The translations under genes and the position numbers were made by a program. Shown here in pieces: positions 2,998-14,651 of a stretch of DNA of 32,000 nucleotides. The notes under the pieces were generated by a model that saw nothing but the letters and a program-made list of their open reading frames with translations, was not told the origin of the DNA and did not search any database. Origin of the DNA: Dickeya dadantii NCPPB 898 (GTDB lineage Bacteria; Pseudomonadota; Gammaproteobacteria; Enterobacterales; Enterobacteriaceae); assembly GCF_000406145.1 (NCBI RefSeq), contig NZ_CM001976.1:4455175-4487174 (forward strand). The letters are read 5' to 3'. Positions within the stretch are counted from its first letter, which is position 1; each line of letters starts with the position of its first letter.

Positions 2998-4158
2998 TCA
3001 GGCGGTCTGCGGCAGTTGTTCCAGGCTCTGCTTCGCCAACTGATACAGGTAATGCGCGGTCGGGAACAGCGCACTATCATCCACCCGGAATTTGGGGTGA
3101 TGCAGCGCGTACGGGCCGCCAGAGCCGACCATCATAAAGGTGCCCGGCAGCTTCTGCTGGTAGAACGCGAAGTCTTCGCCGATGGGGCTGGCTTCGACGC
3201 GACGCGCCTCAAACCCTTCGTCATCAGCGACCTGCAGCGCGAAGTCCACCCAGCGCGGCGTGTTCACCACCGATGGCGGTCCGGCGTGCCAGATAAATTC
3301 GATTTCCGCGCCAAAGGTGCTGGCGATGCCGGCCACAATCTGGCGGAAACGCTGTTCAATCAGGTCACGCACCGCCTGACTAAAAGTACGCACCGTTCCT
3401 TCCACATAGGCGGTGTCCGGAATCACGTTCCAGGTGCTGCCGCTGTGCACCTGGGTGATCGACACCACCGCATTATTGTCGGACGGCACGGTACGGCTAA
3501 TAATGGTCTGCACGGAGGAAATCAGCTGCCCCAGAATAATGATCGGATCATTGCCTTCGTGCGGCTTGGCGGCGTGGCAGCCTTTGGCGGCAATCTTGAT
3601 TTCGAAACGGTCCACCCCGGCGGTCAGCGCGCCGTCTTTACCGCCAATCACGCCGACCGGCAGCGTTGGGTCGTTATGAATGCCGAAAATGGCGGTCGCG
3701 CCGTCCAGCGCGCCGACGGCGATCACTTCCGGCGCGCCCAGCCCGGTTTCTTCAGCCGCCTGAAACAGAATACGCACGGTGCCTTTCAGTTCCGGCTCAA
3801 TGCGTTTAAGCAAAATCGCCGCCCCCAGCGCCGCCGAAGAATGGAAATCGTGACCGCAAGCGTGCATCACGCCGGCATTCTTCGAACTGAATTCGACGCC
3901 GGACTCTTCTTCAATCGGCAGGGCGTCGATGTCGGAACGCACCACCACCAACGGGCCGTCCTGCAGGCCACCCACTTCCGCCACCAGACCGGTTTTCAGC
4001 GGCAGATCCAGAATGCGGATCCCTTCTTTTTCCAGCACGGCGCGAATTTTCCGCGTGGTTTCAAACTCCTGATTGGACAATTCCGGATGCTGATGCAAAT
4101 CGTGCCGGAACGCCTGAATAAACTGCGCCAACGGCGCATGCTGGGCATGCTCTTTCAT
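2998..4158 (-). CDS. M20-family amidohydrolase (N-acyl-L-amino-acid deacylase, hippuricase/YxeP-like)
   Basis: 386-aa ORF with the metal-ligand context MHACGHDFH and a GIHNDP motif typical of the M20D aminoacylase/ILR1 group. A GAGGAG Shine-Dalgarno lies 9 nt upstream of the ATG. It is the last gene of the operon. Confidence 0.85.
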   Translation of the reverse strand: MKEHAQHAPLAQFIQAFRHDLHQHPELSNQEFETTRKIRAVLEKEGIRILDLPLKTGLVAEVGGLQDGPLVVVRSDIDALPIEEESGVEFSSKNAGVMHACGHDFHSSAALGAAILLKRIEPELKGTVRILFQAAEETGLGAPEVIAVGALDGATAIFGIHNDPTLPVGVIGGKDGALTAGVDRFEIKIAAKGCHAAKPHEGNDPIIILGQLISSVQTIISRTVPSDNNAVVSITQVHSGSTWNVIPDTAYVEGTVRTFSQAVRDLIEQRFRQIVAGIASTFGAEIEFIWHAGPPSVVNTPRWVDFALQVADDEGFEARRVEASPIGEDFAFYQQKLPGTFMMVGSGGPYALHHPKFRVDDSALFPTAHYLYQLAKQSLEQLPQTA

Positions 4159-4237
4159 GTAGGGTCACTCCTCTTTTTTCAGCCCTGCCTCGCAGGGCGG
4201 CCCGACGCGTCGAGCCTGCAGGTGAATACGTTATCGA

Positions 4238-4999
4238 TCAGATATCGAACTCTGATGGTTCCTGAATGTTAGTCAGCTGTCGCAGGAAGCGGCGGGTCTG
4301 CGGGTTGTCGGAGAAACTGATCACTTTCTCCGCCGGGCCTTGCTCGACAATGTGTCCATCGGCCATAAAGATCACGCGGTCCGCCACCTCTTTGGCGAAC
4401 TGCATCTCATGGGTCACAATCACCATGGTGGTGTTCTGCCCCGCCAGTTTCTGGATAACCTGCAACACTTCATGCACGCGCTCCGGGTCAAGCGCCGAGG
4501 TCGGCTCATCAAACAGGATCGCTTTAGGGTCCACCGCCAGCGCACGGGCGATGCTGACGCGCTGCTGTTGGCCGCCGGACAGCGTCACCGGATACTGGTG
4601 CGCCTGCGGCAGCAGCCCCACCAGCTCCAGCAGCGACAGCCCAATCTCGTCCGCCTGCTTTTTCGGCATTTTCTTCACCACAATCAGGGCTTCGGTGATG
4701 TTTTCCAGCGCGGTCTTGTTCTTGAACAGGTTGTAGTTCTGGAACACCATCGCCGTCTGGCGTCTGAGCGCATACTCTTCCTTGCCGGTATAACGGCGAG
4801 TATCCAGCGACTGCTCGCCGATGGTAATGGTGCCGGATTCCGGCTTCTCCAGCAGATTCAGGCAACGCAACAGGGTGGATTTGCCCGAGCCGGACGGCCC
4901 GATGATCGCCACCACCTCGCCCTGGGCGATATCCAGACTGATGTTGTTCAGCACCACCTGGTCGCCAAAACGTTTGGTCAGGTTTTTTACGCTAATCAT
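4238..4999 (-). CDS. Polar amino-acid ABC transporter ATP-binding protein
   Basis: 253 aa with Walker A GPSGSGKST, ABC signature LSGGQQQRVSIARAL and Walker B ILFDEPTSALD. An AAGGAG SD overlaps the end of the permease gene. Confidence 0.93.
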   Translation of the reverse strand: MISVKNLTKRFGDQVVLNNISLDIAQGEVVAIIGPSGSGKSTLLRCLNLLEKPESGTITIGEQSLDTRRYTGKEEYALRRQTAMVFQNYNLFKNKTALENITEALIVVKKMPKKQADEIGLSLLELVGLLPQAHQYPVTLSGGQQQRVSIARALAVDPKAILFDEPTSALDPERVHEVLQVIQKLAGQNTTMVIVTHEMQFAKEVADRVIFMADGHIVEQGPAEKVISFSDNPQTRRFLRQLTNIQEPSEFDI

Positions 5000-5008
5000 G
5001 TCGGCTCC

Positions 5009-5680
5009 TTAACGCTGCCGTGAGTGGCTGAGTTTCTTCTCCAGCTGAGACTGCAGCCAGGAGTAAACCACAATGAGCATCCAGTAAATCAGCCCTACCA
5101 CCAGGAAAGTTTCGAAGAAGCGCAGCGATTCGGCGGCGATCATCTTGCCTTCGGCAAACAGTTCCGACACCCCGAGCGCAAAAGCCACCGAGGTATCTTT
5201 AATCAGCGAAATAAAGGTGTTGCCGGTGGCAGGCAGCGCATTGAGCATCGCCTGCGGCAGCACGATGCGGCGATAAATCTGCGCCTTGTTCATCCCTACC
5301 GACAGACCGGCTTCGGTTTGCCCGAAATCCACCGACGCCAGCGCCGCCCGGAAAATCTCCGCCATATAAGCCGAGTTCTTCAGGCTAAAGCCGATAATCG
5401 CCGCCGTCATGGCGGACAGGCCATTCAGTGACGGGAACAGCTGGGGCAGGCCGAAATAGATGATGAACAATTGCACCAGCGACGGGATACCGCGAAACAG
5501 CGAGATATAGAGCTCAACCAGTTTCGCCACCACAACGAAGCGGCTCTCGCGAACCAGCGCCAGCACCAGTCCCAGCACGATGGCAAACAGCATCGATACC
5601 ACCGCCAGCAACAGCGTGGTGGGTAAGTACATCAACACCTGGGGAAAAACTTTCAGCAGGTAGGAAAGATCGATATTCAT
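5009..5680 (-). CDS. Polar amino-acid ABC transporter permease (HisM/TcyL-like)
   Basis: 223-aa hydrophobic ORF with an EAA-loop-like segment (QTEAGLSVGMNKAQIYRRIVLPQA). It lies 9 nt upstream of the ATPase gene. Confidence 0.9.
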   Translation of the reverse strand: MNIDLSYLLKVFPQVLMYLPTTLLLAVVSMLFAIVLGLVLALVRESRFVVVAKLVELYISLFRGIPSLVQLFIIYFGLPQLFPSLNGLSAMTAAIIGFSLKNSAYMAEIFRAALASVDFGQTEAGLSVGMNKAQIYRRIVLPQAMLNALPATGNTFISLIKDTSVAFALGVSELFAEGKMIAAESLRFFETFLVVGLIYWMLIVVYSWLQSQLEKKLSHSRQR

Positions 5681-5698
5681 GGGTCATACCATTAACAC

Positions 5699-5728
5699 TG
5701 ACGCCAGCCGCGAATCTGGCTGGCGTCA
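5699..5728 (-). other. Intercistronic stem-loop between the binding-protein and permease genes
   Basis: TGACGCCAGCC-N8-GGCTGGCGTCA is a perfect 11-bp stem in the 72-nt gap after the binding-protein stop. No U-tract follows, so it is not a classical terminator. Confidence 0.5.
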
Positions 5729-5752
5729 CAGGAGTTGAGCGAGCAGGCAGGG

Positions 5753-6532
5753 TTATTTGCCCGCCGTGATGTCCTCGCCGAAATATTTAACAGACAGGGC
5801 TTTCAGTCGGCCATCACTGCGCATTTTGTTCAGTTCGTCATCAAACTTCTTGCGCAGCTCGTCGCCTTTCTGATCTTTATGGAACGGGAAGCCCACCTGC
5901 TCCACCACCAGCGGCTCGCCCACCAGCTTGAACGGCAGGTTGCGCTTATTGATTTCCGCCAGCAGGATCGGGCGGGAGTTGATGTAACCTTCCACACGTT
6001 TCGCCAACGCATCGCTCATGGCGCCGTCGCGGGTTTCGTAAGTGCGAATGTTGACGCTGCCGTCGGCAAAGGCTTTTTTCAGGTTGTTGACGTGGTTGGA
6101 ACCCAGCACGCCCGCCACGGTTTTGCCTTTCAGATCATCCAGCGTATTGATGTTGGCGTTGTCTTTATGCGTAACGATCTGACTGCCGTAATAGCTGTAC
6201 GGCTGGGAGAAGCTGTATTTCTCCTGACGCGCTGGGGTAATCGCCACCACGTTGGCGATGGTGTCCAGCTTGCTGGCTTCCAGTTGCCCCATCAGGCCGC
6301 TGAAATCCGCCGTCACCCACTCGACTTTGTAGTTCAAATCTTTAGCGATGGTTTCCGCCACTTCCACGTCAAAACCAACCAGCTTGTTGTCCTGTTTGAA
6401 CGAACTCGGGTAGCTCTGCCCGGTGGCGCCGATACGCAGTACCTTCTCGCCGCTGTTCTGAGAATCGCAACCCGCCGCCAGAATGGCCGCAGACAAGGCT
6501 AATACAGGGAGGATAATTTTTTTCATAGTCAT
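5753..6532 (-). CDS. Amino-acid ABC transporter substrate-binding lipoprotein (family 3 SBP, cystine/FliY-like)
   Basis: 259 aa. The signal peptide has the lipobox LAAGC (MTMKKIILPVLALSAAILAAGC). The body resembles polar amino-acid binding proteins. An AAGAGG SD lies 9 nt upstream. Confidence 0.9.
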   Translation of the reverse strand: MTMKKIILPVLALSAAILAAGCDSQNSGEKVLRIGATGQSYPSSFKQDNKLVGFDVEVAETIAKDLNYKVEWVTADFSGLMGQLEASKLDTIANVVAITPARQEKYSFSQPYSYYGSQIVTHKDNANINTLDDLKGKTVAGVLGSNHVNNLKKAFADGSVNIRTYETRDGAMSDALAKRVEGYINSRPILLAEINKRNLPFKLVGEPLVVEQVGFPFHKDQKGDELRKKFDDELNKMRSDGRLKALSVKYFGEDITAGK

Positions 6533-6545
6533 CGAATAACGCCTC

Positions 6546-7070
6546 TTAGGGGTGTTTCTTTTCCCAGTGATGATAAAGGTCCTGATCCAGGACTTTTCGC
6601 ATGTAAATCGTGAGGTGTCCTTTCCCTAAATCCGCCTGGCCGACTTCCTGAAAGCCATATTTCCGGTACATTTCCAGCAACCAGGGATGCTGTTTGGCCG
6701 TGCCCAGCGTCACGGCGGGTGCTTTTAACTGGTCTTTCAGCACCGCCTGCTCCAGCCAGTCCAGCATCTGTTTGCCCAGCCCCTGTTGTTTGAAGTCCGG
6801 ATGGGTGGCGAACCAACCGATGTGCGGTAATCCGTACGGGCCGGGATTCGGCCCCCACGGATAGCGAAGGGTGACAGACGCGGCCAGACGCCCGTCTTTC
6901 TCCATCACATACACGCCGTTGCTGCGCAGATGGCGGCGCACCATATCGATGTCCGCATAGGCGGCGTCAAACTTGATGCCCAGTTCGCGCACCGGCGCAT
7001 AAGCGGCCAGCGCCAGCGCCAAAAATGCCTCATCGTCCGCAGACGTGGCCTGACGAAATACGGTACTCAT
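6546..7070 (-). CDS. GNAT-family N-acetyltransferase
   Basis: 174 aa with the acetyl-CoA motif A QQGLGKQML. A GGGAGAGG SD sits between the lyase stop (7082) and this ATG. Confidence 0.85.
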   Translation of the reverse strand: MSTVFRQATSADDEAFLALALAAYAPVRELGIKFDAAYADIDMVRRHLRSNGVYVMEKDGRLAASVTLRYPWGPNPGPYGLPHIGWFATHPDFKQQGLGKQMLDWLEQAVLKDQLKAPAVTLGTAKQHPWLLEMYRKYGFQEVGQADLGKGHLTIYMRKVLDQDLYHHWEKKHP

Positions 7071-7081
7071 GGCCTCTCCCG

Positions 7082-8446
7082 TTACTCGGCCAGCAGACCG
7101 GTGCCATCCGCGTACCGGATCACCTCATCAACTTTCTGCGGCGCGCTGCCGACATAGTTCGCCGGATCCAGCCAGGCATCCAGCGTATCCGCCGTCAGGT
7201 GCTGCGACAGCACCGGATGCTCCAGCAGCAACGCCTTGAACTCGCGGTTCTGTTCGAACGCCGCCATCGAGCATTCATACACCAGGTGATGTGCCGTCTG
7301 TTTGCCGAGCAGTTTGCCGATTTCGAACATCACTTTTTCCGACAGCAGCAGGCCGTTTTGCAAATCCAGATTGGCGCGCATCTGCTTTTCGTTCACCGAC
7401 ATACCACGCAGGATGCCAAGCGCGTTCTGCAACTGCGCCGACAGATAGATGTTGATTTCCGGCAGCGCGATCCACTCCGCGCGCCAGCTCATGGCGTCAC
7501 GTTCGTGTTCGACTTTCATTGATTCGTGGATCAGGGCGGCGCTCTTAAACAGCGGCGCCGTCAGGCTGGCAAGCCCTTCCAGCGCGGCCGGATTGCGTTT
7601 GTGCGGCATGGTAGTAGAGCCGATCTTCCCTTCGGAGAACGGCTCTTCGATTTCGTTGATTTCGGTGCGCATCAGGTTGTACAGCTCGTTGCCGATTTTA
7701 CCGAGCGTACCGCTGATCAGCACCGCCACCGACGCGTATTCCGAGAAACGGTCGCGGGCGGACTGCCAGCCGATATTTGGGGTATTCAAACCCAGACGGG
7801 TCAGGGTATGGCGTTCGATTTCCGGCCCCAGCTCGCCAAAAGAGGCATAGGTGCCGATAGCGCCGTTGATGTTACCTACCAGCACACGCTCACGGATTTC
7901 ATTCAGGCGTTGCAGGTGACGCACAAACTCGTCCAGCCATACCGCCAGCTTGAAACCAAAGGTGGTCGGCAACGCCTGCATGCCGTGGGTACGGCCGGTC
8001 ATCAGCGTATGCTGGTGTTTCTTCGCCAGTCGTTTCAGTTCGATAGCCACCAGACGGGTGTCGCGCACCACGATGTCGAACGCCTGACGCAGCTGTAATA
8101 CCGTGGCGGTATCCACCACATCCTGCGTGGTCACGCCATAATGGATGTACTCGCCGGCTTCGCCGCACTGCCTCTGGATAGCGGCAATGGTCGGCATCAG
8201 AGAATGCTTCATGCGCACCGCATCCTGAGCGATCTCTTCAATATTCAGTGCGCTGGCGTTGGCGTGGGAAGCAATAGTGCTGGCCGCGTCCTGCGGGATG
8301 ACACCCAGATCGCCTTCTGCCAGCGCTAACGCGATTTCCACGTCAACCTGGCGGGTCAGGCGATTCTGCTCTGACCATACGGCGCGCATTTCTGGTGTGC
8401 CAAAGTTATTTCCAATAAGAAGAAAATCAATCAGATGTGATGCCAT
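7082..8446 (-). CDS. Adenylosuccinate-lyase-family (aspartase/fumarase superfamily) lyase, probably not housekeeping PurB
   Basis: 454 aa. It carries the fumarate-lyase signature GSTTMPHKRNP and the conserved HYGVTTQDVVDT and MTGRTHGMQALPTTFG blocks. Its architecture resembles Bacillus-type PurB/PcaB rather than enterobacterial PurB. It is the first gene of the six-gene operon. Confidence 0.85.
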   Translation of the reverse strand: MASHLIDFLLIGNNFGTPEMRAVWSEQNRLTRQVDVEIALALAEGDLGVIPQDAASTIASHANASALNIEEIAQDAVRMKHSLMPTIAAIQRQCGEAGEYIHYGVTTQDVVDTATVLQLRQAFDIVVRDTRLVAIELKRLAKKHQHTLMTGRTHGMQALPTTFGFKLAVWLDEFVRHLQRLNEIRERVLVGNINGAIGTYASFGELGPEIERHTLTRLGLNTPNIGWQSARDRFSEYASVAVLISGTLGKIGNELYNLMRTEINEIEEPFSEGKIGSTTMPHKRNPAALEGLASLTAPLFKSAALIHESMKVEHERDAMSWRAEWIALPEINIYLSAQLQNALGILRGMSVNEKQMRANLDLQNGLLLSEKVMFEIGKLLGKQTAHHLVYECSMAAFEQNREFKALLLEHPVLSQHLTADTLDAWLDPANYVGSAPQKVDEVIRYADGTGLLAE

Positions 8447-8494: not shown

Positions 8495-8885
8495 GACGAC
8501 GCTGTTGTTTGTTGGCGACTATATCACCGGCGATATTCCCGCCTATATACCCGATCGATATAAGATATTCTTTATTGTTTTATGATTTCGTTGGCAATTA
8601 TTTTCCTGAAAACTATGTAATCAGTCTAACTCCTGATATGCCGTTTGCGATGGCCTGCACCGAATGCGTGCGTCCCCATTACGCCATCTTCGCCGGTAAA
8701 TCAGGATATGGTCATCGCCCCGGCTGGAAGCGCCGGAAGTAAAAGGATTATTTTTCAATCGATTAAACTTAAAGGACTCACCCCGCACTATCCGTTTTCG
8801 GCAATTCTGTCCCTGCCCACGCCAGAGGCGGCGTACTGGCTCAGGAATTGCTTGAATTCATGGGGTTTACTGGCTGGAGGCCAAC

Positions 8886-9866
8886 ATGGAATCTGTCGTT
8901 TTTTCCAGACCGGCAAATGCATCCGCGTCGTTAAGTCATCTGCGCTCATCCAATATTGAAGAGCACGCTGCCGGCATGACCGGCTGGTCATTGCAGTACA
9001 ATCAACTGACACCGGGGAAATTTTCCGGTCGGTTGACGGTCCTGGAGCTGGAGGGCATTCAGTTCGTCCGGGATCGCGTCAATCTGGCGTTATTCAAAAG
9101 CGGCCAGGCCAGAAAAGAGCTGCTGTTCACTTTTCCTCTGCATGCTCCCTGCGCCGATTTTTACTGCGCTGGGCACCAAATCAACCGCCACAGCCTGCTG
9201 GTGGCGCCATCCGCTTCGCTGCCGGATCTGCGCGCGCCGGAACACATTGATTTGTTGGCCATCAGCGTGGACGCAGCCTGCTTTACCACCCTGTTCGACG
9301 ACGCAGATGACCGGGCGTTGAATACGCCGCAGGTATTCCCGCTTAATGACCCTGACAACCTGACCCGCTGGCAAATGCTAAGCGACAGCCTTGACGAAGA
9401 AAGCCGGCGCAACGCGACACTGCTGGACTTCACGGCTATCCGTAAAGGGCTGCGCGATACGCTGTTGATTTCCCTGTCGGATATGGTGGGGCATTCGCAG
9501 GCGCTGAGGCTAACCGGCAGCGCCAAAAAGCGCATCGTGGACCGGGCGCAGGAGTATATGCTGACCCACTGCGAAAACCCGCCCTCGATTCTGGAGCTGT
9601 GCAAACACGCCGGCGCCAGCCGCCGCAAACTTCAGTATTGTTTCCAGGAAACGCTGGGCATCAACCCGGTAAGTTATCTGCGCGTGCTGCGCCTCAATGG
9701 AGTACATCGTGACCTGCTAAAGGGCGCACCTTCGGTGCAAGATGTCGCCTACGGCTGGGGATTCTGGCATCTTAGCCGCTTCGCCAACGACTACCGCCGA
9801 CTGTTTGGCGAACCGCCCTCCGCCACGCTGGCCCGTAGCCGTCACAACTGTGCTAATTTCGGCTAA
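8886..9866 (+). CDS. AraC-family transcriptional regulator (EutR/FeaR-like architecture)
   Basis: 326 aa. The C-terminal dual HTH is typical of AraC/XylS, and the ending WGFWHLSRFANDYRRLFGEPPSATL resembles EutR-type regulators. A GGAGG SD lies 6 nt upstream. Confidence 0.88.
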   Translation: MESVVFSRPANASASLSHLRSSNIEEHAAGMTGWSLQYNQLTPGKFSGRLTVLELEGIQFVRDRVNLALFKSGQARKELLFTFPLHAPCADFYCAGHQINRHSLLVAPSASLPDLRAPEHIDLLAISVDAACFTTLFDDADDRALNTPQVFPLNDPDNLTRWQMLSDSLDEESRRNATLLDFTAIRKGLRDTLLISLSDMVGHSQALRLTGSAKKRIVDRAQEYMLTHCENPPSILELCKHAGASRRKLQYCFQETLGINPVSYLRVLRLNGVHRDLLKGAPSVQDVAYGWGFWHLSRFANDYRRLFGEPPSATLARSRHNCANFG

Positions 9867-9922
9867 CATTGTTTCATCTTCATTACCTACGCTGACCAAC
9901 AACAAATACAGCGAAAAGGAAT

Positions 9923-10867
9923 ATGAAGATGAATTTTCTCAGCAATATCTCGTCATTTATTCGCAATTTATTAATATTTTCGACACTTTCGACAATAATG
10001 ACCGGTGTGGCTCAGGCGGCTGAAAACGGCACCCCCACCACGGCCGCCGGCGTGTATGATTTCGGCACCGGTTTCCTGCCGCTCACCACGGATTTCGGCA
10101 CCTTCGGCTCCCGTATCGCGTTCTATACCGCGCACACCAACCGTGACAACAACGGCAACACGCTCAACGCCCCCTTTTCATTGCAGGTACTATCGATGAG
10201 TCTGGCCTGGATGAAAATGACCGACCAGACGCTACTCGGCGGCCGCTATGGTTTCGGCCTGATCCAGCCGTTCTTCAAAATGGATATCGACATGACGGTG
10301 CCTACGCCGGCAGGCGGGCTGACGCTGCGCGACAACGTATTCCGCGCAGCGGACCTACAAGTCATACCGTTGATTCTCGGCTGGACGCCCGCCCCCAATC
10401 TTGCCATCAATACCCAGTTCCAGATTCAGGCGCCAACCGGCGACTATGACCGCAACCGTCTGGTTTCTCCGGGGCTAAACCACTGGGTTTTCTCTCCCAT
10501 CATCAACGCCACCTATATTACGTCCAGTGGGTTCGAGGTTTCCTCCAGCCTGGAGGTGGATGTCAACACGCAAAATCATGCCACCGATTACCGCAACGGC
10601 GTCGAATACCGCTACGAATATGCGCTGGGGCAACATATCGGTGCCTGGACAGTCGGCGTCGGCGGTTATTACTACAACCAGTTCAGCGACGACAGCAGCC
10701 CGACGCTGACACAGGGTATCCGCTCACGGACCTTCGCCTATGGCCCGGCGGTCAGCTATTTCACCCCCAAAGGTCCGGCAATTTGGGTACACGCCTATAA
10801 GGAAAACTATTCCCGCAACCGCAGCGAAGGCTACACCCTCGCCTTTCGCATCGCACAAAGCTTCTGA
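9923..10867 (+). CDS. Outer-membrane beta-barrel channel (MetA-pathway/phenol-degradation-type transporter family)
   Basis: 314 aa. The signal peptide ends AQA|AE. The mature part has alternating, aromatic-rich beta-strand character, with the motif PTGDYDRNRLVSPGLNHWVFSP and a C-terminal Phe (AQSF). The family assignment is from memory. Confidence 0.75.
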   Translation: MKMNFLSNISSFIRNLLIFSTLSTIMTGVAQAAENGTPTTAAGVYDFGTGFLPLTTDFGTFGSRIAFYTAHTNRDNNGNTLNAPFSLQVLSMSLAWMKMTDQTLLGGRYGFGLIQPFFKMDIDMTVPTPAGGLTLRDNVFRAADLQVIPLILGWTPAPNLAINTQFQIQAPTGDYDRNRLVSPGLNHWVFSPIINATYITSSGFEVSSSLEVDVNTQNHATDYRNGVEYRYEYALGQHIGAWTVGVGGYYYNQFSDDSSPTLTQGIRSRTFAYGPAVSYFTPKGPAIWVHAYKENYSRNRSEGYTLAFRIAQSF

Positions 10868-10880
10868 CGGAGACGCCATC

Positions 10881-12104
10881 ATGCAGTCAATACTGACTAC
10901 CCCGGCCGAAGGACGAATTCCGCGCGCCAGCCGCGAAGGGCTAATACTGATCCTCGGCGGCAGCCTGACCATCATGGGTTCGGTGATGATCGCTGCGGTG
11001 ATGCCGAAGATCGACGCCGAGTTCGGCCCGCGCACACCGGCCGCCGACGTGCTGGTTCCATTGGCTATCACCGGCCCGGCGCTGGCGATGGCGCTGTTTT
11101 CCCCGCTGGTCGGCTGGCTGGCCGACCGTTTCGGCCGCAAAAATTTGCTGATTCTGGCTACTGTGCTGTACGCCGTCACCGGTATGCTGCCGGCATTACT
11201 GGACGACCTCGGCAGCATCGTACTGAGCCGTCTGGTATTCGGTTGCGCTGAAGCCGCCATCATGACCTGTTGCACCACATTGATTGCCGATTACTGGCAC
11301 GGCCAGGAGCGAGGGCGCTTCGTCAATCTACAGGTGGTATCCATCGGGATTGTCGGTGCGTTGTTCTTTGTCATCGGCGGAGCACTCGGCGAGCACAGCT
11401 GGCGCCTGCCTTTTTATCTGTATCTGCTGCCGCTGTTGCTGGTGCCCGCCATGATCGGCGTGCTGTGGGAACCTCAGGTGAAACCGCGCGCCAGACAAAA
11501 ACAACCGGAGGCCGGTCAGCCGACGGTGTCCGGTACCCTGCTGGCCAACTACCTGCTGGTGTCTGGCGGTATGGTGCTGGCGTTTGTGGTGCCGGTGCAA
11601 ACGCCGGCGCTGCTCGTGCAGAAAGGTATCACTTCCAGCACGCTGATCGGGCTGTCCGCCGGACTCGGCCTGCTGGCATCACTTGTCGGTTCGCTGCTGT
11701 GGCCCTGGTTTCGCCATCGTGTGGGGATCGCGGGCGTTAATACTTTACTGCTCACGCTGGAAGGAGTCGGCTTATGGCTGCTGGTGCATGCTGGAGATTA
11801 CCCACAAGTACTGCTGGCGGTGTCCGTGCACGGTATCGGCGTCGGTATGCTGGTCCCCAATACGATGCTGCCGGTCATGAATGCGTTATCCGAGCGGCAT
11901 CGGGGTAAAGGCCTCGGCGTATTTACCGGTTGTCTGTATATCGGGCAATTCATCAGCCCATTGGTTGTCGCCGTCATAGCGAATGTTGCGCACAACATCC
12001 AGGGATCGATCCAATTATTGTCTGTCGCCAGTCTGGCAGGCGCGCTGGCATGGCTGTTCACCGGTCTGAAACGCCAATCCGCCCAGATCGCCAAAGACAA
12101 ATAA
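10881..12104 (+). CDS. MFS transporter
   Basis: I prefer the ATG at 10881, with a GGAG SD 13 nt after the OMP stop, over the track start at 10740, which overlaps the OMP gene. It has about 12 hydrophobic segments and the MFS motif A GWLADRFGRK. Confidence 0.88.
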   Translation: MQSILTTPAEGRIPRASREGLILILGGSLTIMGSVMIAAVMPKIDAEFGPRTPAADVLVPLAITGPALAMALFSPLVGWLADRFGRKNLLILATVLYAVTGMLPALLDDLGSIVLSRLVFGCAEAAIMTCCTTLIADYWHGQERGRFVNLQVVSIGIVGALFFVIGGALGEHSWRLPFYLYLLPLLLVPAMIGVLWEPQVKPRARQKQPEAGQPTVSGTLLANYLLVSGGMVLAFVVPVQTPALLVQKGITSSTLIGLSAGLGLLASLVGSLLWPWFRHRVGIAGVNTLLLTLEGVGLWLLVHAGDYPQVLLAVSVHGIGVGMLVPNTMLPVMNALSERHRGKGLGVFTGCLYIGQFISPLVVAVIANVAHNIQGSIQLLSVASLAGALAWLFTGLKRQSAQIAKDK

Positions 12105-12156
12105 CAGCTGATTATAAAAACCAATTAAAAGAGTCAGATACATAAGGAGGCGTTAC

Positions 12157-13611
12157 GTGAAACACATCCATCAGTTACTGGACACACAGGATGGCGTCGG
12201 GCTGGCCGGTTTGGTGACATGCGGCGAAGTCAAGCCTGCGGAACTGGTTGAAGCCGTGATTGAACGTCTGGAACAAGTCAACCCCAGCCTCAATGCGGTG
12301 GCCGAACCGCTTTACGACAGCGCCCGACACGCCGCCCGCACGATGGAGATCGCTCAGGGCGGCGCGCTGGCAGGCGTTCCTACGCTGGTCAAAGACCTGT
12401 TTACCGCGGTGAAAGAAGCAAGAATGACCAACGGTTCGCTGGCACCGGGCGAAACATATCCCGGACTCGACGATGAAATGATGCGGCGCTATCGCAAAGC
12501 GGGCATCCTGATTGTCGGTACATCTACGTCGCCGGAGTTTGGTTCTTCCTACACCACCGAATCCACCCGCTTCGGCGCCACCCGTAACCCGTGGAATACG
12601 CAACACAGCGCCGGAGGCTCCAGCGGCGGCGCTGGTGCGCTGGTAGCGGCTCGCGTGGTGCCGTTCGCCCACGGCAATGACGGCGGCGGTTCACTGCGGG
12701 TGCCGGCATCCTGCTGCGGCGTCTTCGGGCTGAAACCGACCCGGGGGCGAATGCCAAGCGGGCCGCTGGCAGGCGAAGGCTGGGCAGGGATGGGCGCACC
12801 CCATGCAGTGACGCTCTCGGTACGCGACAGCGCTGCGCTGCTGGATATCGCGTCAGGGGCCGACGCAGGCGCGCCTTACGCCGCGCCATACCAAAGCGAA
12901 CCTTTCATGGCGGCGCTGTCACGCCCTGCCCGCACACTGCGTATCGCGCTGGTCGAACATCTCTCCCCCTGGGTTACCAGCGAACAAGCGCTAAGCGCCG
13001 TCCGGCACACCGCCAGGCTGTGCGAACGCCTGGGCCACCAGGTCGATGTGGCGACGCTCCCGGTGACGGCGGAAAAATTCTTCAGCGATGCCTTTACCAT
13101 TATCAGCGTCAACACGCAGGAATACGTCGATCTGCTCGGCCATATGCGGGGAGCGCCGGTCAGGCCGGAAGAACTGGAGCCCAGAACTCGGGTCATGTTA
13201 CGTGAACGCGGCCGTCAGTCTGGCGTCGAATACGTGGCGGCGGTTAACGCCATGCATGCGCTAGGCCGACAGTTTGCCGGATTCATGCAGGATTATGATC
13301 TGATCCTGACGCCGACGCTGACTCGTGAACCGACGCCGATCGGCACACTGGATGCGTTTGACGATCGGCTCACCGTGGACGATATCATTGAAGGCTTCCA
13401 CCGTTATTGCCCGTTTACCGCGCTATTCAACGCCACCGGACAACCGGCGATGTCAGTGCCGCTTTACTGGACGCCGGGGGGCCTGCCGATCGGCTCTCAT
13501 TTCGCCGCCCGCTTTGGCGACGAAAACACGCTGCTGGCGCTGGCGGCACAGCTGGAGCAGGCGCAACCCTGGGCTGGCCGGGTGCCGCCGGTCAATGCGT
13601 TGTCAACATAA
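12157..13611 (+). CDS. Amidase-signature (AS) family amidase
   Basis: 484 aa with a GTG start 6 nt after a strong TAAGGAGG SD. The amidase signature GGSSGGAGALVAARVVPFAHGNDGGGSLRVPAS is present, as are Ser-cisSer-Lys triad candidates (VKDL Lys, GGSS, GGSLR). Confidence 0.9.
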   Translation: MKHIHQLLDTQDGVGLAGLVTCGEVKPAELVEAVIERLEQVNPSLNAVAEPLYDSARHAARTMEIAQGGALAGVPTLVKDLFTAVKEARMTNGSLAPGETYPGLDDEMMRRYRKAGILIVGTSTSPEFGSSYTTESTRFGATRNPWNTQHSAGGSSGGAGALVAARVVPFAHGNDGGGSLRVPASCCGVFGLKPTRGRMPSGPLAGEGWAGMGAPHAVTLSVRDSAALLDIASGADAGAPYAAPYQSEPFMAALSRPARTLRIALVEHLSPWVTSEQALSAVRHTARLCERLGHQVDVATLPVTAEKFFSDAFTIISVNTQEYVDLLGHMRGAPVRPEELEPRTRVMLRERGRQSGVEYVAAVNAMHALGRQFAGFMQDYDLILTPTLTREPTPIGTLDAFDDRLTVDDIIEGFHRYCPFTALFNATGQPAMSVPLYWTPGGLPIGSHFAARFGDENTLLALAAQLEQAQPWAGRVPPVNALST

Positions 13612-13655
13612 CGCCACGTCAAAAGCGCGTTCGGCTGACTGAGGCTTACTGTTAT

Positions 13656-13683
13656 AAAAAAGACCGCCGGAGCGGTCTTTTTT
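13656..13683. terminator. Bidirectional rho-independent terminator between the amidase and NTF2-like genes
   Basis: AAAAAAGACCGC-CGGA-GCGGTCTTTTTT is a 6-bp GC stem flanked by A6 and T6. It lies between two convergent stops. Confidence 0.8.
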
Positions 13684-13714
13684 ATACACTGCGAACGCCA
13701 CCGCATTCGCATAA

Positions 13715-14050
13715 TTACGCAAAATAGAACCATGCCGTCGCAATCAATCCGTCTTTGACTTCAAACACCGCGATGCTTTCGATCGGTTCAGGTTCTATGC
13801 CGTAAATCTTTTCATGATCAAAAACATGGTTACCCAGCACCGTGCGGGACACCAGCTCGGCTCGCAGCGCCGGGTTATTGAACCGGTGGTCGCGATAGAA
13901 GGTTTCCAGCGCGGCTTTTCCCTCCATGGACGAGTTTTCGGATGGCATGCGGTAAGCCCGGAAGTCGTCGTGGAAACAGGCGACAAAAGCGGTCAGGTCA
14001 TGGGCGTTGTAGGCGGCAAACTGTTTTTCAACCGGATCGATGATTGACAT
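13715..14050 (-). CDS. NTF2/SnoaL-like small protein of unknown function
   Basis: The ORF track gives 13715..14062 (115 aa). I favour the ATG at 14050 because the first codons, ATGGAGAGTGCT, form a GGAGAG SD for it. Its size and alpha+beta cone-type sequence (DLTAFVACFHDDF...) suggest the NTF2-like superfamily. Confidence 0.6.
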   Translation of the reverse strand: MSIIDPVEKQFAAYNAHDLTAFVACFHDDFRAYRMPSENSSMEGKAALETFYRDHRFNNPALRAELVSRTVLGNHVFDHEKIYGIEPEPIESIAVFEVKDGLIATAWFYFA

Positions 14051-14147: not shown

Positions 14148-14180
14148 AAAAAAAACGGCAGCCCATTTGGGCTGCCGTTT
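14148..14180 (-). terminator. Rho-independent terminator of the tRNA operon
   Basis: The minus strand reads AAACGGCAGCCC-AAAT-GGGCTGCCGT followed by T8, starting 14 nt after the tRNA-Pro 3' end. Confidence 0.85.
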
Positions 14181-14193
14181 CTTAAGAATAGGA

Positions 14194-14270
14194 TGGTCGG
14201 CGAGAGAGGATTCGAACCTCCGACCCACTGGTCCCAAACCAGTTGCGCTACCAAGCTGCGCTACTCGCCG
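14194..14270 (-). tRNA. proM: tRNA-Pro (anticodon UGG)
   Basis: 77 nt. The reverse complement reads CGGCGAGTAGCGCAGCTTGGTAGCGCAACTGGTTTGGGACCAGTGGGTCGGAGGTTCGAATCCTCTCTCGCCGACCA, identical to E. coli proM as I recall it, and includes the encoded CCA. Confidence 0.95.
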
Positions 14271-14310
14271 ATCCCGATTTAGAACACGTACATTACTGCT
14301 GTTGTTTGTG

Positions 14311-14396
14311 TGGTGCGAAGAGAGGGACTTGAACCCTCACGTCCGAAGGACACTAACACCTGAAGCTAGCGCGTCTACCAATTCCGCCACCTTCGC
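14311..14396 (-). tRNA. leuT: tRNA-Leu (anticodon CAG)
   Basis: 86 nt. The reverse complement starts GCGAAGGTGGCGGAATTGGTAGACGCGCTAGCTTCAGGTGTTAGTGTCC. It has a long variable arm, a TTCAAGTCCC T-arm and an encoded CCA. Confidence 0.93.
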
Positions 14397-14416
14397 CTGT
14401 CACAAACTTTAAAATT

Positions 14417-14493
14417 TGGGGTGGCTAATGGGACTCGAACCCACGACAACTGGAATCACAATCCAGGGCTCTACCAACTGAGCTATAGCCACC
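14417..14493 (-). tRNA. hisR: tRNA-His (anticodon GUG)
   Basis: 77 nt. The reverse complement reads GGTGGCTATAGCTCAGTTGGTAGAGCCCTGGATTGTGATTCCAGTTGTCGTGGGTTCGAGTCCCATTAGCCACCCCA, including the extra 5' G typical of tRNA-His. Confidence 0.95.
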
Positions 14494-14574
14494 ATATACC
14501 ACTGCTTTACTACGTATTCCAGTACTCAACTTACGGGGTAATAAGTACCTCCGCAGCTCCCGCACTCAATTTAA

Positions 14575-14651
<77 letters not shown>

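Follow-up and report, generated by a model that had tools for sequence, protein, structure and literature searches.

The window analysed here is a stretch of 32,000 nucleotides from Dickeya dadantii NCPPB 898 (contig NZ_CM001976.1), and its subject is a cassette of four same-strand genes at positions 8886-13611, encoding an AraC/XylS-family regulator, an outer-membrane channel protein (OMP), a transporter of the major facilitator superfamily (MFS) and an amidase-signature enzyme. On the sequence evidence, the four genes form a genuine unit, self-contained and mobile by horizontal transfer. The identities of the genes, the catalytic residues, the fold of the channel, the co-conservation, the boundaries of the insertion and the DNA boxes with their spacing were established in the present analysis, and the regulatory anatomy of the cassette, i.e., its boxes and promoter geometry, is new here. 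The genes and outer features, numbered by position in the window, are the following.

8604-13715: whole inserted cassette, comprising control region, four genes and terminator, delimited by homology breakpoints against the empty site
8886-9866, plus strand: AraC/XylS-family regulator gene, 326 amino acids, assigned by open reading frame (ORF) and HTH_18 match
9923-10867, plus strand: OMP gene, 314 amino acids, Phenol_MetA_deg match
10881-12104, plus strand: MFS transporter gene, 407 amino acids, ATG start, nested in a longer ORF at 10740-12104
12157-13611, plus strand: amidase-signature gene, 484 amino acids, GTG start
13656-13683, both strands: bidirectional intrinsic terminator, shared with a convergent SnoaL gene, found by sequence reading and fold energy

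An earlier description of this DNA, made by a model from the letters and their ORFs (in the following, the sequence-only reading), had claimed four co-directional genes with short gaps and good Shine-Dalgarno sites, and reading of the sequence confirmed this. The gaps are 56, 13 and 52 nt in the order regulator, OMP, MFS and amidase. The ribosome-binding site of the OMP gene reads AAGGAA and that of the MFS gene GGAG, and the GTG of the amidase gene is preceded by TAAGGAGG. The terminator that was said to close the unit is real as well; its hairpin, AAAAAAGACCGC-CGGA-GCGGTCTTTTTT, has a fold energy of -24.1 kcal/mol (z = -4.58). A scan with consensus promoter and terminator patterns missed the hairpin at 13656-13683, probably because the flanking A/T runs pair and lengthen the stem, so that no free T-tail remains. 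An Rfam search of the cassette region revealed no riboswitch or other known RNA element; a sub-threshold istR match over the terminator (29.6 bits versus 45) is most likely spurious. The regulator (WP_038912157) and the MFS protein, together with ThrP, WecG and the lyase encoded in the window, are exact matches to D. dadantii RefSeq entries (WP_038912156-63), and the counterparts of the four genes in strain 3937 are ADN00445-ADN00448.

Proteins encoded by the cassette

The amidase matched Pfam Amidase (PF01425) over residues 29-460 with 305.3 bits against a cut-off of 27 (E = 1e-90). The motifs GGSSGG and GGGSLRVPAS, from which an intact amidase signature had been read, were found unbroken, and the Ser-cisSer-Lys triad (K79/S155/S179) is invariant in 24 orthologues and aligns with the KDL, GGSSGG and GS(V/L)R(I/V)PAS motifs of NylA. 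The enzyme has no signal peptide; its location is cytoplasmic. Its best solved relative is NylA (3a2p; E = 1.9e-86, full length, ~40% identity), followed by an aryl acylamidase (E = 9e-50) and then GatA. Subfamily placement, which had been suggested as a check, was carried out with the curated NCBIfam models, and the amidase remained below the cut-off of every one of them, the best being PRK07869 with 368.6 versus 418 bits. The housekeeping GatA-like subunit that had been named as the case against a dedicated module was not found: TIGR00132 gave 181.6 versus 481.1 bits in two partial stretches, and neither gatB nor gatC is present in the block. IaaH (157 versus 532 bits), AtzE (188 versus 461) and allophanate hydrolase (104-109 versus 487-511) were rejected likewise. 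Several orthologues are labelled 6-aminohexanoate-cyclic-dimer hydrolase by NCBI. Orthology to NylA itself was rejected on the basis of the ~40% identity, the score below cut-off and the positions reported to contact the cyclic dimer, Asn125 and Cys316 in NylA, which are Ser130 and Ile316 here. These comparisons place the enzyme in the NylA subgroup and not with the housekeeping GatA proteins.

For the OMP, Phenol_MetA_deg (PF13557) was matched over the whole model with 205.3 bits against a cut-off of 22 (E = 2e-60). A signal peptide, MKMNF...GVAQA|AENG, is predicted to be cleaved at AQA|AE, which makes E34 the Glu at position 2 of the mature protein; this residue is invariant in 36 orthologues. 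Channels of the COG4313 family carry a conserved Glu2 in the mature N-terminal plug, and their pairwise sequence identity is typically below 20% (PMC4493636). A sequence search of the OMP against the PDB returned no meaningful match. The AlphaFold2 model (pLDDT 84.8, 13 strand elements compared with ~12 expected of such a barrel) had Pput2725 (4rl8) as its top PDB match in Foldseek (E = 3e-10, TM 0.65/0.76), and NCBI names the orthologues 'SphA family protein'. Family match and modelled fold identify the protein as a COG4313/SphA-family outer-membrane channel, in line with the earlier description of a small beta-barrel of the family found beside aromatic or hydrophobic catabolic genes.

The transporter matched MFS_1 with 140 bits and showed 12 hydrophobic segments in the hydropathy plot, with motif A, GWLADRFGRKNLL, between helices 2 and 3. 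None of the NCBIfam subfamily cut-offs was reached, the best scores being 72.9 versus 200.9 bits (Bcr/CflA efflux) and 68.1 versus 418.6 bits; Bcr/CflA efflux, aromatic acid:H+ symporter, MhpT and other named subfamilies were considered. Of the MFS importer with motif A that had been proposed, the 12-helix carrier and the motif therefore stand, and the import direction is suggested by the context.

The regulator carries a C-terminal double helix-turn-helix (HTH_18, residues 238-316, 81.8 bits versus a cut-off of 33.6) and an EutR-like N-terminal domain, with the match to the EutR model spanning residues 20-317. The description as an EutR/FeaR-like AraC protein holds for the EutR-like architecture only. 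Orthology to EutR was rejected at 154.4 bits versus a cut-off of 319 (NF007522), and orthology to FeaR was rejected since NF007243 gave no match and the 25% identity to the FeaR of one collected locus (L046) covers the DNA-binding domain only.

Co-conservation and mobility of the block

A profile-guided scan with one genome per species gave 80 loci, ~70 of which carry the regulator, OMP, MFS and amidase genes in this order. Among the genera represented are Pseudomonas (many species), Halomonas, Marinomonas, Amphritea, Marinobacterium, Nitrincola, Marinobacter, Xanthomonas, Dickeya and Pectobacterium. The block is found on an IncFIB plasmid of Klebsiella pneumoniae (amidase 75% identical), on plasmids of Burkholderia cepacia (58%) and Rhizobium acidisoli (54%), on replicon p1 of Azospirillum lipoferum (59%) and in the chromosome of Acinetobacter baylyi (58%). 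The barrel gene is missing in Marinomonas spartinae, Larsenimonas and Pseudosulfitobacter, and the MFS gene in Pseudomonas syringae and Pseudomonas viridiflava (L076, L080, L084). Flanking genes vary among the genomes, nothing past the four genes is generally conserved, and the four proteins rise and fall together in percent identity from locus to locus (Spearman 0.32-0.61). Spurious antisense ORFs called in GC-rich loci (e.g., families 8 and 16) were disregarded. Conservation across genomes had been suggested as a check on the four-gene block; it proved to be strong, extending over dozens of genera, with the block present as one insertable unit in Dickeya.

Three further observations were made on individual copies. 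In Pseudomonas morbosilactucae, the OMP gene is broken into two ORFs (L025, 5762-6693), and two copies of the block each are present in Pseudomonas salomonii and P. viridiflava (L023/L043, L038/L084). Sequence OZ240079.1 (L058; 7.1 Mb), labelled Leclercia tamurae, carries the cassette together with FeaR, aldehyde dehydrogenase and permease genes, all of them 95-99% identical to loci of the Pseudomonas brassicacearum group; it looks like a Pseudomonas chromosome under an enterobacterial name.

The boundaries of the insertion were obtained by comparison with cassette-less Dickeya solani and Dickeya dianthicola, to which homology ends at 8603/8604 and resumes at 13716. The mobile unit thus includes its own 280-nt control region and the terminator. 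In D. dianthicola and most D. solani, the SnoaL gene lies directly beside the S-(2-succino)cysteine (2SC) lyase gene; in D. dadantii and one D. solani lineage (L094), the four genes are situated between these two. By this comparison, the cassette is a clean presence/absence polymorphism in Dickeya. The proteins of the D. solani cassette are just 88-91% identical, with ~97% identity of the left flanking DNA. A copy with ~75% identity was found at other sites in Dickeya oryzae, Dickeya undicola and Pectobacterium zantedeschiae, which implies separate acquisitions.

The wider gene order in the window is hemX-hemY, a leftward operon, the cassette, the convergent SnoaL gene, four tRNAs, thrP/yifK, the wec cluster and rho. 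The leftward operon (2998-8446, minus strand) comprises genes for an adenylosuccinate-lyase-like protein, a GNAT acetyltransferase, a solute-binding protein and an M20 deacylase, along with the permease and the ATPase of an ABC transporter. Since the UniProt name of the lyase-like orthologue in strain 3937 is 'N-acetyl-S-(2-succino)cysteine lyase', it looks like an S-(2-succino)cysteine breakdown operon; it is kept in every Dickeya examined and is independent of the cassette. The tRNA cluster (14194-14651, minus strand; Pro(TGG)-Leu(CAG)-His(GTG)-Arg(CCG)) adjoins thrP/yifK and wecG, the same placement as in E. coli, and a strong terminator lies at 14150-14183. The interval from hemY to tRNA-Pro is a variable hot spot: in cassette-less D. 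dianthicola and D. solani (L092, L093), genes for a solute-binding protein and an iron-containing alcohol dehydrogenase (Fe-ADH), absent from the window, lie between the tRNAs and the SnoaL gene.

Operator boxes and candidate promoters

The control elements of the cassette are as follows.

8788-8803, minus strand: inverted copy of the operator; the plus strand reads CTATCCGTTTTCGGCA
8837-8852, plus strand: candidate sigma-54 -24/-12 element TGGCTCAGGAATTGCT for the regulator gene
9851-9867, plus strand: operator box TGCTAATTTCGGCTAAC, overlapping the regulator stop codon; TGCY-N6-GGMTAA in 78 of 78 loci
9888-9893, plus strand: candidate -10 hexamer TACGCT of the OMP-MFS-amidase promoter, from TAnnnT spacing

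The box with the consensus TGCY-N6-GGATAAC (TGCY-N6-GGMTAAC across loci) occurs at or just after the regulator stop codon in every one of the 78 loci. It is read here as a DNA element and not as a codon constraint, because in several loci it lies wholly past the stop codon in non-coding DNA. In 77 loci, just 34-117 nt separate the regulator gene from the OMP gene, and a TAnnnT hexamer follows the box at a distance of 20-21 nt in 71 of 78. At this distance the box covers the -35 region, as is usual for AraC/XylS activators; in sequence it is similar to the XylS half-site, TGCA-N6-GGNTA.

Upstream of the regulator gene, the k-mer TTTCGGCA was found in 49 of 77 regions, 77-123 nt ahead of the start; its reverse complement is the box at the regulator stop codon. 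Of 78 upstream regions, 67 carry the pattern GG-N8-TTGC, compared with 12% of control windows, and in 52 loci a constant distance of 24-25 or 34 nt separates it from the inverted box. Its GG and TTGC are invariant across genera with variable bases in between, and the version on the Klebsiella plasmid, TGGCACGCGCCTTGCT, is near-consensus for sigma-54. A sigma-70 reading of the conserved TTGC was rejected, as there is no -10 hexamer 16-18 nt further on in Dickeya or Pectobacterium. The sequence GCACCGAATGCGTGC at 8657-8671, ~190 nt upstream of the sigma-54-like element, fits the NtrC-type pattern GCAC-N7-GTGC; this match may be due to chance or lineage-specific.

From these elements, the OMP-MFS-amidase genes appear to have a promoter with the box over its -35 region, and a sigma-54-type promoter appears to serve the regulator gene. 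Of the self-contained unit described previously, the single module is retained, but there are probably two promoters, with the regulator gene transcribed from one and OMP-MFS-amidase from the other; the predicted transcription starts are at about 8863 and about 9900, respectively. This is the normal regulator-plus-operon layout, which leaves the module unbroken. Within 1.3 Mb of collected loci, the box is nearly confined to its two cassette positions, implying that the regulon would be the cassette itself. A slightly larger regulon is hinted at on a plasmid of Cupriavidus basilensis (L090; boxes at 2285, 8721 and 9801), where the amidase is 47% identical, the regulator gene lies downstream, the inverted and direct boxes are retained and a third box is situated ~200 nt upstream of a 'serine hydrolase' gene.

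Substrate, rival readings and relation to known systems

The clue to the substrate came from the neighbours of the block in other genomes. In a survey of 90 loci, 34 had neighbours that fit one metabolic theme, leading from a primary arylalkylamine via the aldehyde and the arylacetate to ring cleavage, and the genes concerned belong to several non-homologous sets. Genuine hpa genes, whose products HpaA, HpaG and HpaE score over their equivalog cut-offs, lie near the block in the Pseudomonas fluorescens group, Pseudomonas luteola, Larsenimonas, Rhizobium and Acinetobacter, and in Acinetobacter baylyi the block is placed directly between a cluster for an amine oxidase, an aldehyde dehydrogenase and a permease and the hpa cluster. 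The P. brassicacearum group has FeaR (373 bits versus a cut-off of 199), a StyD/FeaB-like aldehyde dehydrogenase, an APC permease and DUF3156 nearby. In Pectobacterium, Xanthomonas and several Pseudomonas, the block is accompanied by genes for PuuB/AmaA-like FAD amine oxidases, MoaF, a LuxR-type regulator and an SDR enzyme. An OCD-family protein (NCBIfam 'tyramine oxidase subunit B'), together with a Rid protein and an FAD oxidase, is encoded near it in D. oryzae, D. undicola, the Klebsiella plasmid, Halomonas, Pseudomonas putida and Azospirillum. Class-III aminotransferases are also among the neighbours, and in Cupriavidus a quinohemoprotein amine dehydrogenase is encoded beside the 47%-identical homologue. 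Since a random 16-kb window would, by our own estimate, overlap an hpa/FeaR cluster well below 1% of the time, the association is unlikely to be due to chance. This theme implies that the product of hydrolysis may be an arylethylamine (e.g., tyramine) or (hydroxy)phenylacetate.

We therefore read the cassette, with a probability of roughly 55%, as a system for the inducible two-membrane uptake of an amphipathic amide and its cytoplasmic hydrolysis, moving as one unit, whose substrate would be an aromatic amide of the arylethylamine/4-hydroxyphenylacetate route. The COG4313/SphA-type barrel would pass the amide through the outer membrane, the MFS carrier would move it into the cytoplasm, and the Ser-cisSer-Lys amidase would cut it to an acid and an amine (or ammonia). 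The AraC-family protein would bind TGCY-N6-GGATAAC over the -35 region and activate the OMP-MFS-amidase promoter when substrate or product is present; the inverted box upstream of its own gene, read from the sigma-54-type promoter, would provide autoregulation. The direction of transport, the activation by the regulator and the substrate are what we infer in this scheme. The aromatic or hydrophobic amide proposed in the sequence-only reading agrees with the aromatic-amine and hpa neighbourhoods and with the role of the COG4313 family, which is implicated in the uptake of amphipathic molecules (PMC4493636).

As to the kind of amide, our best guess comprises two options: an N-acyl-tyramine-type secondary amide, such as the plant hydroxycinnamoyl-tyramines or N-acetyltyramine, and a 4-hydroxyphenylacetamide-type primary amide. 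The characterised members of the NylA subgroup that are known to us (NylA, lactam hydrolases, LibA and QsdB; grouped as in PMC3676327) cleave substituted and not primary amides, which is our own generalisation. Because of this preference, and because most of the neighbour genes oxidise amines, we lean to N-acyl-arylethylamines. A plant or microbial secondary-metabolite amide had been suggested earlier; its plant side is attractive for Dickeya, for which hydroxycinnamoyl-tyramines are a candidate substrate class, but the block also has marine hosts (Marinomonas, Amphritea, Halomonas), which speaks against a substrate of purely plant origin.

Further points weigh against uptake and cleavage of an aromatic amide under the control described. 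Adjacent amine or hpa genes are absent from 56 of the 90 loci, and no such genes flank the cassette in the D. dadantii window; the associated loci include closely related Pseudomonas, making the number of independent events lower than 34. The name 'tyramine oxidase subunit B' is an annotation name only, not traceable to a paper, and the weak best scores of the MFS protein fall in efflux families (Bcr/CflA, 72.9 bits). No box was found ahead of the neighbouring amine or hpa genes in the collected loci, which puts these genes outside the cassette regulon. Finally, a sigma-54 promoter requires an AAA+ activator, and no gene for an AAA+ enhancer-binding activator is present in the cassette or among the recurrent neighbours; NtrC control is unlikely, given that GCAC-N7-GTGC is not conserved, with 3 of 78 upstream regions versus 1.5% of controls. 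An activator encoded elsewhere in the host may act on the promoter.

Rather unlikely, in our judgement, is that the cassette mainly serves nitrogen acquisition by scavenging primary arylacetamides (4-hydroxyphenylacetamide, phenylacetamide or indole-3-acetamide), which would be split to ammonia and an arylacetate for the hpa or paa pathway. The amidase-signature enzymes IaaH and mandelamide hydrolase act on such amides, hpa clusters lie next to the block in Acinetobacter, the P. fluorescens group, P. luteola, Larsenimonas and Rhizobium, and nitrogen control would fit the sigma-54-type promoter of the regulator gene. However, the non-conserved NtrC sites, the low score with the IaaH model and the substituted amides cleaved by the known NylA-subgroup members speak against it, most of the associated neighbour genes oxidise amines instead of cleaving rings, and small neutral amides would hardly need a dedicated channel for hydrophobic substrates.

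Hydrolysis of lactams, oligoamides or other acyl-amides (omega-lactams, compounds resembling nylon oligomers, acylanilide herbicides or drugs), with a natural substrate apart from the aromatic amines, is suggested by NylA and the aryl acylamidase as closest structures and by the cyclic-dimer hydrolase label on several orthologues. The identity to NylA is low, though, with the best NCBIfam score below its cut-off and the contact residues Asn125 and Cys316 replaced by Ser130 and Ile316; the block is of ancient origin and occurs widely in plant and marine bacteria of unpolluted habitats, and the neighbourhood pattern would be left unexplained, so that we hold this explanation to be improbable.

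Still less probable is the uptake and cleavage of N-acyl-homoserine lactones for quorum quenching or feeding. These signals are amphipathic, the hosts live in signal-rich rhizospheres, and QsdB, an amidase-signature enzyme of the NylA/OctHD/LibA subgroup, cleaves them, whereas NylA and LibA of the same subgroup do not (PMC3676327). QsdB peptides were rebuilt from the mutagenesis primers given there and searched against all collected proteins and loci; the motifs FLIKDLV and GGGSIRI and the numbering K70/S147/S171 matched no cassette amidase, ruling out orthology to QsdB, and no catabolic genes for homoserine lactone or fatty acids recur beside the block.

We give very little credence to detoxification by export of a toxic amide or its hydrolysis product through the MFS protein, perhaps together with the barrel, since, despite weak best NCBIfam matches of the carrier to drug-efflux families (Bcr/CflA, TetA) and a proposed sphingosine uptake by SphA that is itself protective (PMC4493636), COG4313 proteins are described as uptake channels (PMC4493636), the amidase is cytoplasmic, TM5 reads without a clear antiporter motif C (GP..GG), and the block associates with catabolic and not with resistance genes.

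A literature search found no publication on the four-gene block. As the amidase, MFS protein and regulator fail the curated orthologue tests in addition, we conclude that the cassette is outside any characterised system, as the sequence-only reading had supposed. In its workings it would resemble other inducible catabolic modules that combine channel, carrier and hydrolase. A close parallel in gene content is SphR-SphA of Pseudomonas aeruginosa, which likewise has an AraC-family regulator gene beside a COG4313/SphA barrel gene and whose ligand, sphingosine, is an amphipathic nitrogen compound; SphA, the best-known COG4313 member, is under the control of the adjacent SphR (PMC4493636). The cassette differs by the added MFS carrier and amidase and by the absence of sphBCD or ceramidase genes.

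With the NylA, omega-lactam hydrolase, LibA and QsdB subgroup, the cassette amidase shares the fold family and the Ser-cisSer-Lys triad, but at ~40% identity it lies below all curated NCBIfam models and lacks the QsdB motifs; we know of no enzyme of this subgroup described in an AraC-OMP-MFS context. Concerning regulation, the TOL cascade, in which XylR acts on the sigma-54 promoter Ps1 for xylS and XylS in turn on Pm, with a XylS box overlapping the -35 region of the catabolic promoter, is similar in that an AraC/XylS-family gene lies behind a sigma-54-type promoter and the box TGCY-N6-GGATA over a -35 region. In contrast, the cassette has no XylR-like gene nearby, a single box instead of two direct repeats, and an extra inverted box. 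The Acinetobacter hca cluster, with porin HcaE, MFS carrier HcaK and esterase HcaG for hydroxycinnamate conjugates, follows the same plan of outer-membrane channel, MFS carrier and hydrolase, the last releasing the aromatic unit of a plant conjugate for a nearby catabolic pathway; it uses an esterase and other channel and regulator families, and it is not a four-gene mobile unit. The amiEBCRS operon of P. aeruginosa is likewise inducible and serves amide use, but it has neither an outer-membrane channel nor an MFS carrier, AmiE belongs to the nitrilase superfamily, and control is by AmiC/AmiR antitermination.

The most specific version of the amide-uptake reading is that the cassette is the first bacterial system dedicated to the import and cleavage of plant hydroxycinnamoyl-tyramine-type defence amides (or related N-acyl-arylethylamines), feeding tyramine to amine oxidation and the hpa route. 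We regard it as rather unlikely in this form. If true, soft-rot and other plant-associated bacteria would disarm and eat a wound-induced plant barrier compound by means of a plug-in unit that spreads between genera with its own operator and sigma-54-gated regulator.

Irrespective of the exact substrate, the cassette is an overlooked compact mobile unit of plant pathogens and root colonisers (Dickeya, Pectobacterium, Pseudomonas, Xanthomonas, Burkholderia, Rhizobium and Azospirillum) that is also carried on a clinical Klebsiella plasmid. The sigma-54-type promoter before an AraC-family gene without a nearby activator is a small regulatory puzzle in itself, and the operator with its regulator forms a ready-made biosensor chassis. 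With the substrate identified, hundreds of proteins annotated as 'amidase', 'transporter' or 'helix-turn-helix protein' would receive a function, and only the second or third COG4313 channel would have a known cargo; the cassette could also reveal how bacteria handle aromatic amides of plant or microbial origin.

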